A DNA stretch of 64,000 nt. Origin: a bacterium. Lineage in GTDB: Bacteria; Patescibacteriota; Minisyncoccia; Phycocordibacterales; UBA2100. The notes under the pieces are model-generated. The model was not told where the DNA came from, searched no databases, and was given only the letters and a program-made list of their open reading frames with translations. The stretch is taken from assembly GCA_030647655.1 (NCBI GenBank), contig JAUSJH010000006.1, positions 3,737 to 67,736 of the forward strand, written 5' to 3'. The first letter of the stretch is position 1. The number at the start of each line of letters is the position of its first letter. Position numbers and translations under genes: made by a program. Positions 44,578-59,760 of this stretch are shown piece by piece.

Positions 44578-44697
44578 GAAATTGAAACGCCCGCAATAGC
44601 GGGCATACGATGCCTGCCATTGGTCCCTATGGGGACATGGGATGACAGGGAGTATACAGAGGCAAACTCAAAAGTCCACCCCCCTGTACTCGAAATG

Positions 44698-46149
44698 CTA
44701 AAGCGTGGGCTCGAGTGGCGACGCATGATTTCGTCGGCGGACCCAGAGCCATGAGACTACAAGAAGCGCCAGAAGCGCAATCACGCCAGTAAGCTTCAGG
44801 AGACCTGACGGTGAGAGGATGTCGCTTAAGGAGAACGTTTGCGATTTCAACTCTTTCGGAAGGCAGGTAGACGGAGCAATCTGATTGCAATCGTACGTCA
44901 GCAGAGACTCATCGACGAGCGTGCCGCCCTGATAGAGCTTCGCGGTGAGCTCGAACGTGTCGTAATTGCCTTTCGGGGTGAATTTCTCCGCGACGCCCAT
45001 CATGTCACCAGTCACGTCACCCGTATACGTATATTCGTGAATAAGTTTGCCCGAAGTGTCCGAGAGATGGAGGACGAGCTTGCCATTGGGTACAGACTCG
45101 CTCTCGCCGCTGTTGTGCAGGCACGAGAAGAGCGTCGTTTCCTCACCTTTGCGCAACGGAAATGCGGTCACTCCCGGAAAATTGATGCGCGTGCGGTCGA
45201 TTCCTGTGCGCGCGAAGCGCACGTTGATGATGGACTGCGTGTTGCCCCAGCCCACCCAGCCGATGAGTAAGTACACCGGATAGCGCGCATCGGTCGCGGT
45301 ATACGAGACTGTCGCGCTCCCGCCAGCGGGGACGGATACTTGCGAATCGCTTTGCGCTACCAGGTTGCCCGGCTGACCCGCATCCCATGTGTAAAGCTTC
45401 CACGACACGGGCACAAGTACTTTCTGCGCCGTGGTATTGCGTATGACCGCGCTTATCGGCACGGCCGCTACTTTGTCTGTGCGCGGCGGGAACGCGGCGA
45501 AGTAGTATGTGTTGCCCGCTACCGTGACCGCGTTCTTATCGAACGATACGAGTTTCTGCTGTTCGCCAGACACATGGAAGCTCGCTGTGTTACCGACAAC
45601 ATCGTCAGTGAACGAGAGGCCGAGCAGATTGTATTTCTTGGATGTGGTGAAGAAGGTGGCGATTTTGTAGTCGCCCGTAGATGCATAACTCGGAATATCC
45701 CACGTGAACGCGATGGGCAATGAGCCCTGCGCCGGTAGATTGATACCACTACGCACGAAGAATTGGTCAACGACATCGGGACCGTTCGGGTCTTTGGCGC
45801 CGGAATTATCCTTCAGTCGGAATACCTTGATATAGAGTGCGCCGTCCACGATTGGGTAGGGATTGTCGTTCTTGATGGCGCCGGTAAAGGTGATGGGCGT
45901 GCCCGAGACCGCGGTCGTGACACTTGAACTTACGTTCACTTGTACCGAACCGAAACGGTAGTACGCGAAGCAATCGGTAGTGCCAGCCGGAAACACGACC
46001 GTGGTGGTAGAAGGGACCGCATCAGCGTCGTCGGGCGCAAGCGTATCTTGTGCGAGTGCGAGCGGCGCGCCTGAGCTGGCAAGGAGAAGCACGGCACTGA
46101 TAAATGCGGTTCCGCGCCGAAGACTAACGATGAGAGAGTTCATAGACAT
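44698..46149 (-). CDS. secreted surface protein with C-terminal TM anchor, hypothetical
   Basis: Signal peptide, beta-rich 440 aa, C-terminal GVIALLALLVVSWLWVRRRN helix plus basic tail. Confidence 0.5.
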   Translation of the reverse strand: MSMNSLIVSLRRGTAFISAVLLLASSGAPLALAQDTLAPDDADAVPSTTTVVFPAGTTDCFAYYRFGSVQVNVSSSVTTAVSGTPITFTGAIKNDNPYPIVDGALYIKVFRLKDNSGAKDPNGPDVVDQFFVRSGINLPAQGSLPIAFTWDIPSYASTGDYKIATFFTTSKKYNLLGLSFTDDVVGNTASFHVSGEQQKLVSFDKNAVTVAGNTYYFAAFPPRTDKVAAVPISAVIRNTTAQKVLVPVSWKLYTWDAGQPGNLVAQSDSQVSVPAGGSATVSYTATDARYPVYLLIGWVGWGNTQSIINVRFARTGIDRTRINFPGVTAFPLRKGEETTLFSCLHNSGESESVPNGKLVLHLSDTSGKLIHEYTYTGDVTGDMMGVAEKFTPKGNYDTFELTAKLYQGGTLVDESLLTYDCNQIAPSTCLPKELKSQTFSLSDILSPSGLLKLTGVIALLALLVVSWLWVRRRNHASPLEPTL

Positions 46150-46150
46150 A

Positions 46151-47809
46151 TTACAGCTCCCGAACCAACGGTACGACGTTCACGGTCGTGGATTGTGTGA
46201 GTATCGAACCATCGAGCCCCGTGCATGAGAGCGTGTAGACGGTCTGGCTCTGGATTTGAGATGTGGCGACGCCTGAGGAGAGTGCCCCGCTCCAAGCGCC
46301 CGTGCCATTGGCGAGTGGGTCGCTCGGGCTCGTCACCTTGCAGGAATTGCCCACGACATTAGCGGCGCTCCACGAGACAGTCGTCGTGTCGCCCGGACGC
46401 ACAAGCGAAGGAACGGCACGGATGAGGAGCGCGGGCGTGCCTCCTCCGCCTCCTCCTATGCAGTAAGCGCCGCTCTGCGTTTGCGGTGGGGTGCACTGGC
46501 ATGATGGGTATGCTGTCTTGTTGAGGCCGTTGGAGCACAAGGTGCCAATGTCCACACAGGAAGAGCCGCTTTGTTTTTGCCCAGTGGGACAAGTGCACGA
46601 TGGATACGTCGTCTTGTTGAGGCCGTTGGAGCACAGATTCTGTGTGCCCGAGCAGGTGAATCTGAAGGTGGTCCATCCCGAGGAAAATCCGGGCTTGTCG
46701 AACGCAATGACCTTGATGGTCTTCCCGCCAGCTGTTGTGTATGTGCGAGAGGCCGATTGCGCGACTCCCGAGGCGACGTATCCCGAAGATGGAACGAACT
46801 GGTCTACGGTGCCATCTGCGTCCCAGTCCACGCCGTATCTCACTTGGTCACCGTCGGAATCCGTGGAGTAGAACGTGATGGTATGCGAGGTGCCGATGGT
46901 GCACTGGCCGGAGCCGGAGACAGTGGGAGCGGAGGGTGTGGAACCTGTGGTATCTGTAACAGTAATTGGATACGGGATTGTTTGCGTCGGAACAGTAAGC
47001 AAGAAATTGCCCTGTGATCTCCCTGCACTTGATGCCGCGGGTTTGTATACCCACATGGGTTCGTTGTTCCCTGTGCAACGGCGCGCTGCCAATGGTCCAC
47101 TCGTGGGGTCCAGTCTACCGTAGAATCTTCCCCTTGTGGCGGCAAAGGAAAACGAGAGCGGGACTGTGCCGAGATCGGAGGCAGTGCAGGTGCGCGAACC
47201 GTTCTCGGCCGCTTCTCCGCATGAAAGGTTGCCGACTCCTTGTACGGTCTGGTTTGGAGGTGCCGCGACAAGCGCCGCATAGATTTTTCCGTCTCGGACA
47301 CCGTTACGATCATGTCCTACAAAATCCTTTTCAAGACAGGCGAGCCGCGGCGCCGATGCTTGCGCGCGCCATTCTCCGTAGGGGCTGTCGTAGCCGAAGC
47401 CCGTGGAAAACCAATAGATGTCTTCGCTCGCGTGTCGGTCGAATGAGAGAACGAGCCGAGTCCCGCGCAAGACCGAGCCGCCGGGAGGAATGATTTCGCC
47501 TGTCGCCGCTTTTTTCACTACCGCGCGATATTGCACGGAAATCGTCGGATTACCGAATCCGAACGAATCCGGTCCGGAGCATTGGCGATCGGCGCCCAGC
47601 GGAACGAGGCAGGAGCGAATAAGTGTTCTAGAAACCGTCGTGCTCCACACGACGCTTTCCGCGTGAACAAGAAGGGGCAACACTATTGCAATTAAAAGCG
47701 CCGCCAGTGAAAGCGAATAGGCACACCAGAGAGTTCGATGCATATCTGCATTATAGAGCGTGGAAAGCGTCGGCGGCGACACAATGTGGCGACGTGTGTA
47801 CAAATTCAC
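46151..47809 (-). CDS. secreted Cys-rich repeat protein, hypothetical
   Basis: Signal/TM at N-terminus; two tandem about 33-aa Cys repeats (CSNGLNKT.YPSC.C...QSG..C), then a poly-Gly. Confidence 0.5.
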   Translation of the reverse strand: MNLYTRRHIVSPPTLSTLYNADMHRTLWCAYSLSLAALLIAIVLPLLVHAESVVWSTTVSRTLIRSCLVPLGADRQCSGPDSFGFGNPTISVQYRAVVKKAATGEIIPPGGSVLRGTRLVLSFDRHASEDIYWFSTGFGYDSPYGEWRAQASAPRLACLEKDFVGHDRNGVRDGKIYAALVAAPPNQTVQGVGNLSCGEAAENGSRTCTASDLGTVPLSFSFAATRGRFYGRLDPTSGPLAARRCTGNNEPMWVYKPAASSAGRSQGNFLLTVPTQTIPYPITVTDTTGSTPSAPTVSGSGQCTIGTSHTITFYSTDSDGDQVRYGVDWDADGTVDQFVPSSGYVASGVAQSASRTYTTAGGKTIKVIAFDKPGFSSGWTTFRFTCSGTQNLCSNGLNKTTYPSCTCPTGQKQSGSSCVDIGTLCSNGLNKTAYPSCQCTPPQTQSGAYCIGGGGGGTPALLIRAVPSLVRPGDTTTVSWSAANVVGNSCKVTSPSDPLANGTGAWSGALSSGVATSQIQSQTVYTLSCTGLDGSILTQSTTVNVVPLVREL

Positions 47810-47845
47810 AACTCCCGAAACAACGGTAAGGTGCCGCGGCGCAAT

Positions 47846-59059: not shown

Positions 59060-59170
59060 CTACATCATCTTGACGTCGATGGAGACTCCGGATGGGAGGT
59101 CGATATTGGTGAGGGCTTTCCGCTCGAGGCGGATCCGCATTTGGCGGACGATGACCCCAGCACCAAACTT
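59060..59170 (-). pseudogene. relic copy of rpsJ 3' end (encodes ...KALTNIDLPSGVSIDVKMM-stop)
   Basis: 53/60 nt identical to 59761-59820; upstream part diverged. Confidence 0.65.
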
Positions 59171-59243
59171 AAGTTGGTACGGGGCATGCTTTCGGGGCCC
59201 TTCTCTTCGTATCCATGTGTTGCTGGTGCTTAGTAACCGCCCG

Positions 59244-59495
59244 TCACTTTTTGTAATGATTCGTCACAGCCAAAACTTCAGCTTCACCTTCCTGGGTTAT
59301 GAAAAATAATGCGCGATACTTCCGGTCAATACGAAACGAGTAAATGCCGCGCCAGTGAGGCTCGAGGAGCTCGGTTCTGAGAGAGGGATAACGGATATTT
59401 ATCTCGAACAACTTTGCGGCCTTTCCCCATTTCGCGACAAGTCGCCGTTCGTGTAAGTATTCGCGGACATCATTGCGCAATGGGAGGATATTCAT
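59244..59495 (-). CDS. type II toxin, RelE/ParE superfamily (YoeB/Txe-like)
   Basis: ...HWRGIYSFRIDRKYRALFFI...EVLAVTNHYKK (C-terminal HY); ATGA overlap with the upstream gene. Confidence 0.6.
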   Translation of the reverse strand: MNILPLRNDVREYLHERRLVAKWGKAAKLFEINIRYPSLRTELLEPHWRGIYSFRIDRKYRALFFITQEGEAEVLAVTNHYKK

Positions 59496-59722
59496 GCCTT
59501 ACCGTATGAAGACCGACGCAACCCTTTCTCAAGATCAGCAAGAAACTCCTTGGAATATAACTTTGTTTTGGCAAAATCTTCGATGACAATACCCACGTCA
59601 TCGTGTACCACAACCTCAAAGAGCCGCCCGGCAAGTTGCCGGTATGCTTTTGACTGACGCTTTAGAGCCTGGTATTCGTCTTTGGGGATCGTTATTTTGT
59701 TCATACGGTCGGAGTATAACAC
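59492..59722 (-). CDS. putative antitoxin partner of RelE-like toxin
   Basis: 76-aa ORF immediately upstream and overlapping the toxin; no motif recognised. Confidence 0.4.
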   Translation of the reverse strand: MLYSDRMNKITIPKDEYQALKRQSKAYRQLAGRLFEVVVHDDVGIVIEDFAKTKLYSKEFLADLEKGLRRSSYGKA

Positions 59723-59760
59723 AGACGTTTCGGGTGCAAAGGAAGGATTTCCGGCCGGAT

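Follow-up and report, generated by a model that had tools for sequence, protein, structure and literature searches.

The interval between rpsJ and rplC in a Kaiserbacteria genome: a probable permissive boundary filled in layers

Transcription of the Escherichia coli S10 operon is attenuated by ribosomal protein L4 through a leader that precedes rpsJ. Bacterial chromosomes also possess hotspots where genes are variably gained between fixed core genes; these sites are rich in defence and toxin–antitoxin (TA) genes and differ between close relatives. Integrative and mobilizable elements (IMEs) and cis-mobilizable elements (CIMEs) of streptococci integrate at the 3' ends of ribosomal protein genes, namely rpsI (IMESag-rpsI), rplL, rpmE and rpmG, where tandem accretion is seen (PMC5704250). 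Unconventional circularizable structures (UCS), or translocatable units, are described as recombinase-less segments bounded by direct repeats which can leave as circles with a single repeat and can return by recombination at that repeat (Palmieri et al. 2013, cited in PMC7843796). Features reminiscent of all these systems meet in the DNA between rpsJ and rplC of a bacterium that we place, via the relatives of its S10 protein, in Candidatus Kaiserbacteria (Parcubacteria, candidate phyla radiation (CPR)). The window analysed here comprises 64,000 nucleotides of contig JAUSJH010000006.1, and all positions refer to it. We consider it probable that the rpsJ–rplC interval is a permissive boundary between transcription units which was filled in layers, and not one integrative element.

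The rpsJ–rplC interval in the window and in relatives

An earlier reading made from the sequence only had described rpsJ and rplC as split by 15 kb devoid of ribosomal genes, and its coordinates proved to be exact. The rpsJ gene (59761–60198; Pfam Ribosomal_S10, 3e-30) and rplC (43969–44577; Pfam Ribosomal_L3), which opens the rplC...secY ribosomal cluster, are both located on the minus strand and enclose 15,183 nt with not a single ribosomal protein gene. The genes which that reading had listed for the interval, including two TA pairs, a YcaO/SagB pair, secreted or surface proteins, a TPR protein, a DUF4143 ATPase and a PRTase–PQQ fusion, were likewise recovered with Pfam, NCBIfam and PADLOC.

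For comparison, 80 genome and 80 metagenome loci around relatives of S10 and five loci around relatives of L3 were fetched (designated by L-numbers below), and the proteins of the window were placed in them by tblastn. In none of the 16 loci that form the close clade (EF-Tu identity of 88% or more) is rplC adjacent to rpsJ. Measured gaps in this clade amount to 2.6–3.9 kb, and six of the loci run more than 10 kb past rpsJ without reaching rplC. Two further close relatives (L010, L096) possess a minimal form of about 660 nt in which g161, one of the envelope protein genes of the interval, is the sole gene between rpsJ and rplC. Among 117 other Parcubacteria loci the gap ranges from 1 nt to 7.2 kb with a median of 173 nt; it exceeds 300 nt in 48 and 1 kb in 26 of them. 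Judged by this sample, separation of rpsJ from rplC is the norm in the clade and frequent across Parcubacteria.

Not only the gap but also its content is shared: at least 15 related loci carry the same modules in their rpsJ–rplC interval. The g552, g483 and g161 genes precede rplC in L005, L083 and L097, and a g161 homologue is located immediately upstream of rplC in L010, L096, L081, L082, L005 and L083; the arrangement in the window differs in that g552 and g483 separate g161 from rplC. Genes for YcaO, SagB, PRTase–PQQ, a g119-like protein, g360 and TPR lie downstream of rpsJ, with inversions, in L004, L009, L012, L013, L081, L086, L088, L089, L098 and L099. The GC content is 0.559 between 44.6 and 49.8 kb, 0.494 between 49.8 and 58.4 kb and 0.493 in the third part of the interval, as compared with 0.528 in the rest of the window. 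This deviation is modest, and the tetranucleotide distances of all parts fall inside the range of other 3-kb segments. Because the modules are shared in place by relatives and the composition deviates so little, most of the 15 kb appears to represent conserved lineage content of a variable interval and no recent island.

These data bear on the origin assumed in the sequence-only reading, an old decayed island or several stacked elements, for which comparison of synteny with relatives and of composition with the remaining sequence had been named as a check. The check went largely against an island: modules are shared in place, deviation is modest and the split is the clade norm. Stacking does hold for the rpsJ-proximal 1.4 kb and for the gene of a PDC-S01 ATPase but not for the other ~13 kb, whose modules are kept in relatives. 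A single integrative element or genomic island inserted between originally adjacent rpsJ and rplC and then decayed would be in line with the accessory-looking cargo (TA pairs, defence ATPase, a cluster for a ribosomally synthesized and post-translationally modified peptide (RiPP), surface proteins), with the lower GC content of a part of it and with the lack of ribosomal genes inside. We nonetheless regard such an event as very unlikely, given that the modules occur in the same interval of many relatives in different combinations, down to rpsJ-g161-rplC, and that a conserved leader in front of rplC implies a split older than this genome. Furthermore, repeats bound the first 1.4 kb only (58352–59817), and no copy of the rpsJ end, comparable repeat or att-like repeat was found near rplC. 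The sequence-only reading had also remarked that no integrase or recombinase is visible, and we agree: none of the main open reading frames (ORFs) of the interval matches a recombinase family in Pfam or NCBIfam. The 15 kb as a whole thus comprises neither an integrase nor its remnant, lacks bounding att-type repeats and is not missing from the corresponding site of relatives; by synteny, a single island is largely refuted.

A putative attenuator leader in front of rplC

A hairpin immediately upstream of rplC had led the sequence-only reading to suggest that rplC–rplO may need their own promoter. The hairpin is indeed present, and it is preceded by a promoter-like site and is part of a conserved leader (44578–44678, minus strand). 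The promoter-like site consists of TGGACT-16-TATACT at 44678–44651 and has an extended -10 box. Downstream of it on the same strand follow hairpin P1 (GUCCC-CAUA-GGGAC, 44623–44636), the linker CAAUGGC (44616–44622) and a terminator-like hairpin (44587–44606) that reads GCCCGC-UAUU-GCGGGC on the coding strand and is trailed by a U-run. The leader has a minimum free energy of -25.6 kcal/mol (z = -2.6).

By a simple motif search the leader was detected in front of rplC in at least 41 loci, all of which have a gap of at least 128 nt. It is conserved irrespective of the gene that lies upstream and is missing where rplC is tightly coupled to rpsJ. Counting of base pairs by script revealed covariation in P1, where pair 2 is UA in 30 loci and AU in seven and pairs 5–6 occur as CG, GC, UA or AU. 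The linker has complementarity to the upper part of the terminator's 5' arm together with the loop (CAAUGGC/GCUAUUG). Covarying linker/loop variants are CACUGGC/GCUAGUG, CUCUAGU/GCUAGAG and CAGCAA/UUGCUG, and yet another, read from aligned sequences, is AUGGCAGA/UCUGUCAU. A conserved and structured 5' untranslated region which combines covariation with a terminator is what characterizes an attenuator leader, and the sequence in front of rplC shows this combination. Searches of Rfam 15, at gathering thresholds as well as in permissive mode, gave no match.

Based on these features the leader probably operates by antiterminator/terminator logic under feedback by a ribosomal protein, and we propose it as a candidate for a new ribosomal-protein attenuator RNA. 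Since the leader is seen only at gaps of at least 128 nt, the gap is likely to lie between transcription units, with rplC predicted to head a unit of its own. Separate units for rpsJ and rplC would mean that insertions between them are tolerated.

Gene-end cassettes and the layering of the interval

The most conspicuous recent additions are found next to rpsJ. The last 57 nt of this gene (codons 127–145 plus the stop codon; repeat family D3) are present in three direct copies which are spaced by 701 and 708 nt and share a sharp left boundary, and each of the two intervals of ~0.7 kb is occupied by one compact TA operon with its own promoter-like site. All of these elements have the same orientation as rpsJ (minus strand), whose authentic end constitutes copy 1 (59761–59817). 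Cassette 1 (59117–59760; promoter-like site at 59740–59713) encodes an antitoxin-like protein (59492–59722) and a RelE/YoeB-like toxin (59244–59495) recognized by a weak match (E 0.008); the two genes are kept together in L132 (59/65% identity) and L094. Copy 2 (59060–59116) separates it from cassette 2 (58409–59059; promoter-like site at 59062–59035), in which the gene of a MazE/AbrB antitoxin (58744–58998; MazE match) overlaps by 4 nt with that of a PemK/MazF toxin (58427–58747; Pfam PemK_toxin, 6e-14). A 9-bp hairpin (58405–58427) overlaps the start of copy 3 (58352–58408). With small, overlapping, co-directional genes and a toxin of the PemK family, cassette 2 qualifies as a type II TA system; the other pair is assigned to this type by its weak match and conserved pairing. 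No relatives of either toxin were found in viral contigs.

The differences between the copies are informative with respect to their origin. Copy 2 differs from copy 1 by six synonymous and no non-synonymous codon changes and is identical at 55 of 57 positions to the rpsJ end of L088, a different species. Copy 3, which ends with ...VKML*, shows seven synonymous and two non-synonymous differences. Divergence that is almost exclusively synonymous suggests that the copies evolved inside functional rpsJ genes of different lineages and, hence, that the DNA was imported and not duplicated locally. Being the most decayed, copy 3 would be the oldest displaced gene end, which implies that cassette 2 was inserted first and cassette 1 second. 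Tandem duplication or slippage of the rpsJ end followed by capture of TA genes, or else an artefact of assembly, might be envisaged in view of the shortness of the repeats and the chimeric nature that assemblies of metagenome-derived genomes can have. Yet such local events seem extremely improbable: ratios of synonymous to non-synonymous differences of 6:0, and of 15:3 in a related case, are unexpected for a local duplicate without function, the three copies are distinct in sequence, which speaks against collapsed graph nodes, and the same architecture recurs in independent assemblies from different studies.

These recurrences include the related case just mentioned (L001), where MazE and Doc genes are inserted between rpsJ and a partial rpsJ copy with 15 synonymous and three non-synonymous differences, and L011, where the corresponding position is taken by AbiEii and SWIM genes. 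Other genes serve as targets too. In L006 a Fic gene is located between tuf and a partial tuf copy differing mostly at synonymous sites, in L088 the tuf end together with its terminator is duplicated around a membrane protein gene, and in L033 the fusA end is duplicated around an oxidoreductase gene. The cassettes measure 0.7–1.8 kb and contain one or two genes; their repeats are 57–145 nt long with boundaries that vary across rpsJ, tuf and fusA.

Site-specific integration offers another explanation, according to which the TA cassettes are remnants or satellites of CIME-type elements, the repeats correspond to attL and attR, and a tyrosine or serine integrase that is encoded elsewhere or was lost targets the rpsJ 3' end and gave rise to tandem accretion. 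The identical repeat boundary of both cassettes in the window, the tandem array with an intact rpsJ at one end and the precedent of integration into the 3' ends of rpsI, rplL, rpmE and rpmG with accretion of CIMEs (PMC5704250) are well accommodated by such a scheme. Still, we hold it to be doubtful because there is no integrase in the interval or in any fetched cassette, repeat lengths (57 to 145 nt) and boundaries vary widely between genomes and between the targets rpsJ, tuf and fusA, known IMEs are ten times larger than the cassettes, and the cassette ends have no conserved arm motif in common. Our literature search for rpsJ as an attachment site yielded nothing. Three further schemes were discarded: integration of the tRNA type, as no tRNA genes are near any cassette; template and variable repeats of a diversity-generating retroelement, as the differences are not adenine-specific and a reverse transcriptase is lacking; and integron cassettes, as IntI is lacking and the boundaries are rpsJ coding copies instead of attC-type palindromes.

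A different type of scar marks the gene of the PDC-S01 ATPase, an AAA_14/DUF4143 protein and candidate defence factor (50652–51845, minus strand; PADLOC, E 2e-131). It is inserted between g360 and the gene of a TPR protein (49775–50638, minus strand), which together with g119 make up a conserved trio; the TPR protein is 49–56% identical to its counterparts in L081, L088 and L099. The g360 and TPR genes overlap in L088 and abut in L081. Just upstream of the ATPase gene lies a relic TPR gene fragment (52039–52158, minus strand) that corresponds to amino acids 75–113 and includes an in-frame stop codon; its identity to the resident TPR protein amounts to 58% (tblastn with the L088 TPR protein, E 8e-5; blastx, E 1e-11). 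The ATPase gene may therefore have arrived by recombination, leaving the relic behind.

We propose the following model for the assembly of the interval. In this clade tuf, rpsJ and the rplC...secY cluster are mutually separated, and rplC would be equipped with its own promoter and leader, so that DNA arriving between rpsJ and the rplC promoter would leave expression of the ribosomal genes undisturbed. Old layers inherited within the clade would comprise g483, g552, g161 and g464 as well as the cluster of YcaO, SagB, PRTase–PQQ, g119, g360 and TPR genes, which resembles clusters for thiazole/oxazole-modified microcins (TOMM). Young layers would be the PDC-S01 ATPase gene and the two self-contained TA cassettes, which would have entered in succession at the last 57 nt of rpsJ. 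Every newly arriving cassette would have brought a gene-end copy of its own, thereby restoring rpsJ and displacing the earlier end downstream. We infer that imported DNA was inserted by single-crossover (Campbell-type) integration of a circle with one repeat, as in UCS, or by homology-anchored recombination with the conserved gene serving as anchor, in either case without an element-encoded recombinase. In favour of such a route, the length and the limits of the repeats vary from one target and genome to the next, and a common arm motif is lacking. TA cargo may be enriched since it would resist loss by repeat–repeat recombination.

A broader generalization is put forward more tentatively. Kaiserbacteria and other Parcubacteria of the CPR might host minimal recombinase-less cassettes of one or two genes, mostly toxins, TA pairs or defence genes, which move as DNA taken up from relatives and recombine via the carried rpsJ, tuf or fusA end, which would act as a homology arm or att site that travels with the cargo. 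In that case the TA cargo would protect against loss, and the rplC attenuator would open the junction as a landing pad.

Several points weigh against our model. The identical repeat boundary of both cassettes in the window fits a trans-acting site-specific recombinase at least as well, and the search for recombinases covers 64 kb of the genome, which makes a recombinase encoded elsewhere possible. Mobility was not directly observed because no same-species variant without a cassette was found; a metagenome scan revealed no locus of the same species, the best S10 match being 82% identical. Exact look-ups of the S10 and L3 proteins of the window likewise returned no record, although an L3 with 100% identity exists (P0001). 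In the part between 49.8 and 58.4 kb, the lower GC content (0.494 versus 0.528) along with a YcaO protein just 24–55% identical to that of relatives makes repeated replacement by transfer, as opposed to purely vertical descent, a possible history. Concerning the leader, RNAalifold applied to a MAFFT alignment did not recover the structure, the hairpins of variable length being misaligned, and linker pairing of at least 7 bp was present in 62% of real pairs versus 32% of cross-pairing controls, a moderate separation. Finally, the promoter calls are consensus matches of which 16 were found as compared with 13.9 expected by chance.

Apart from these cassettes, repeats of other kinds were encountered. 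In L132 (843–1864) homologues of the cassette 1 gene pair precede tuf and are flanked by two copies of an 85-nt promoter-like stretch from the region upstream of tuf, an arrangement suggesting that duplication by cassettes may extend to 5' regions. A PaaX/Cas2-like gene of 192 codons lies between rpsJ and rplC in L113 (682–1356) and L110 (4332–5005), flanked by two copies of a hairpin whose core GUCCUAUAGGA resembles P1 of the rplC leader. Such hairpin-only repeats (L036, L113, L110, L128) may be dispersed intergenic families and not target duplications, and they are not counted as firm cases. The repeats of L028 were dismissed as cassette borders, as they are internal repeats of one large protein. 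Repeat families of 45–130 nt occupy several intergenic spacers of ribosomal protein operons in related Parcubacteria (L082 at 15991–16123, 16668–16793 and 17128–17257; L122 at 8541–8585 and 9237–9281; many copies in L029 and L036) and look like elements of the miniature inverted-repeat transposable or repetitive extragenic palindromic type. A 30-nt double hairpin, TCCGCCnnnGGCGGATCCGCCnnnGGCGGA, is found in frame within coding genes, where it encodes S-A-x-G-G-S-A-S-G-G and resembles miniature versions of the Rickettsia palindromic elements. Its hosts are rplC, rplV, the N-terminal extension of rpsJ and, in the window, a thrC-like gene (SSGGGSASGG); it was located at 13072–13101 (minus strand), 39405–39419 and 59119–59150 of the window, and in L101 (11569–11598), L120 (8569–8598), L137 (14892–14921) and L005 (10004–10033). 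The copy at 59119–59150 is degenerate and lies at the border of cassette 1, directly next to rpsJ-end copy 2.

Older modules, flanking genes and comparison with known systems

The central part of the interval codes for a putative peptide modification module. The YcaO cyclodehydratase (56218–57780, minus strand; Pfam YcaO, 1.5e-43) reaches 187 bits with TIGR03604, below the cut-off of 219, whereas the SagB-type dehydrogenase (55481–56239, minus strand) scores 131.8 bits with TIGR03605, above the cut-off of 78.4, in agreement with an FMN dehydrogenase of the SagB type. The C-terminus of YcaO, ...NPWPHPFP, conforms to the PxPxP pattern. A fusion of a PRTase with a PQQ-like beta-propeller (53798–55480, plus strand; Pfam/NCBIfam) is linked to YcaO and SagB in relatives, the three genes being co-linear in L012, L013 and L089. 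Pfam and NCBIfam searches did not recognize a gene for an E1-like partner or for one with a RiPP recognition element, and a region of ~140 amino acids at the N-terminus of YcaO is without match.

Next to this module, g119 (53328–53687, minus strand) encodes a small membrane protein with an N-terminal transmembrane helix and a tail rich in Gly, Ser, Cys and Glu whose coding sequence contains a 6/9-nt microsatellite; it is followed by g360 (52218–53300, minus strand). Positional homologues of g119 in L088 (13932–14333), L081 (5682–6089), L013 (15262–15720) and L099 (18254–18586) have in common with it the helix, an A(H/Y)AD motif and the Gly/Ser/Cys-rich tail. This tail makes g119 a candidate RiPP precursor, albeit one that is long and has a transmembrane helix. 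With linear azol(in)e clusters such as SagBCD and McbBCD the module shares a YcaO protein with a PxPxP end, a SagB dehydrogenase and a nearby small ORF, and the C-terminal position of the Gly/Ser/Cys-rich tail of g119 is reminiscent of microcin B17. Unlike in these clusters, the candidate precursor comprises 100–150 amino acids and a transmembrane helix, and the conserved partners are PRTase–PQQ, g360 and TPR; unlike members of the SagD family, the YcaO protein of the window falls below the family cut-off. We therefore file the module as TOMM-like and not as a proven TOMM member. A literature search for a Kaiserbacteria YcaO protein found nothing. In the closest L3 relative, L081, a gene of the MbnB/TglH/ChrH family (4341–5225) is present in the same interval beside the g119-g360-TPR trio, a hint that one RiPP chemistry may be exchanged for another here.

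The rplC-proximal part harbours four genes for envelope or secreted proteins, all on the minus strand: g464 (48338–49732), g161 (47846–48331), g552 (46151–47809) and g483 (44698–46149). Homologues of the latter three are found in the same interval of relatives, and g464 is matched there partially, in its C-terminal portion only. Two of the large secreted proteins contain internal repeats (3 x 132 nt at 48762–49157 and 2 x 79 nt at 46461–46635). A small secreted protein, g123 (57851–58222, minus strand), is encoded between YcaO and copy 3; its gene has its own promoter-like site (58274–58246) and a strong terminator (57835–57807), and a homologue was found in none of the fetched loci.

Among the flanking genes, S10 itself carries an N-terminal extension of ~45 amino acids rich in Lys, Ala and Pro. 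L4, the product of rplD (43179–43961, assigned by ORF map and family search), has a C-terminal extension of ~45 amino acids. In L065 (882–5648) rplC and rplD are 3.5 kb apart with a repeat-bounded gene in between; thus, other junctions of the S10 operon can open too. On the opposite side, tuf (60802–62001; ORF map and family search) had been described in the sequence-only reading as isolated from fusA and tRNA genes. This is borne out, since no tRNA gene is near tuf and PKD and peptidoglycan-binding proteins are encoded upstream in place of fusA. It is a solo gene 600 nt away from rpsJ, with a strong bidirectional terminator at 60608–60663 (regions inspected: 60199–60801 and 62002–63864). The tuf–rpsJ gap of close relatives (L001–L011) spans 1.3–6.8 kb and contains cassettes as well. 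Elsewhere in the window, a tRNA-Ile gene with anticodon TAT (UAU in the RNA) is located at 2190–2264 and a tmRNA gene at 10456–10838.

The rpsJ–rplC junction is among the most conserved gene junctions of bacteria and serves as synteny anchor and, for metagenome bins, as a block of phylogenetic markers. It appears to be routinely open in a large CPR lineage, made possible by the independent conserved rplC leader, and to collect defence, toxin and RiPP genes. Because genes accumulate at a routinely open junction, contigs of the ribosomal block in these bins are broken or appear chimeric. The cassettes with their scars provide a concrete, testable route of gene gain in organisms with few recognizable mobile elements. 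Two leads emerge from this study, i.e., recombinase-less cassettes at gene ends and the rplC leader as a candidate for a new ribosomal regulatory RNA.

How, then, does this locus relate to the systems introduced above? As in IMEs and CIMEs, the cassettes of the window are located at the very 3' end of a ribosomal protein gene whose end is restored, they are flanked by direct repeats and they form a tandem array; TA cargo is common in both, and CIMEs also lack an integrase. They are unlike IMEs in their size of 0.7–1.8 kb, their content of one or two genes and the lack of an integrase, a relaxase or an oriT in view, and they differ from the streptococcal elements in their CPR hosts, in their targets rpsJ, tuf and fusA and in repeats of 57–145 nt of varying extent. 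With UCS the TA cassettes have in common that they are recombinase-less segments between direct repeats. By contrast, the repeats of UCS are usually much longer and their cargo is antibiotic resistance, and the cassettes described here are known from sequence alone.

Like the 5' leader of the E. coli S10 operon, the rplC leader is structured and places a terminator hairpin ahead of rplC-rplD..., and its logic would suit autogenous control. It differs in that it precedes rplC, with rpsJ being detached, and that sequence and structure are unrelated. Finally, the interval shares with chromosomal hotspots a variable gene content between two core genes; what sets it apart is its location inside a normally most conserved operon junction, behind which rplC is preceded by a lineage-specific promoter-like site and leader.

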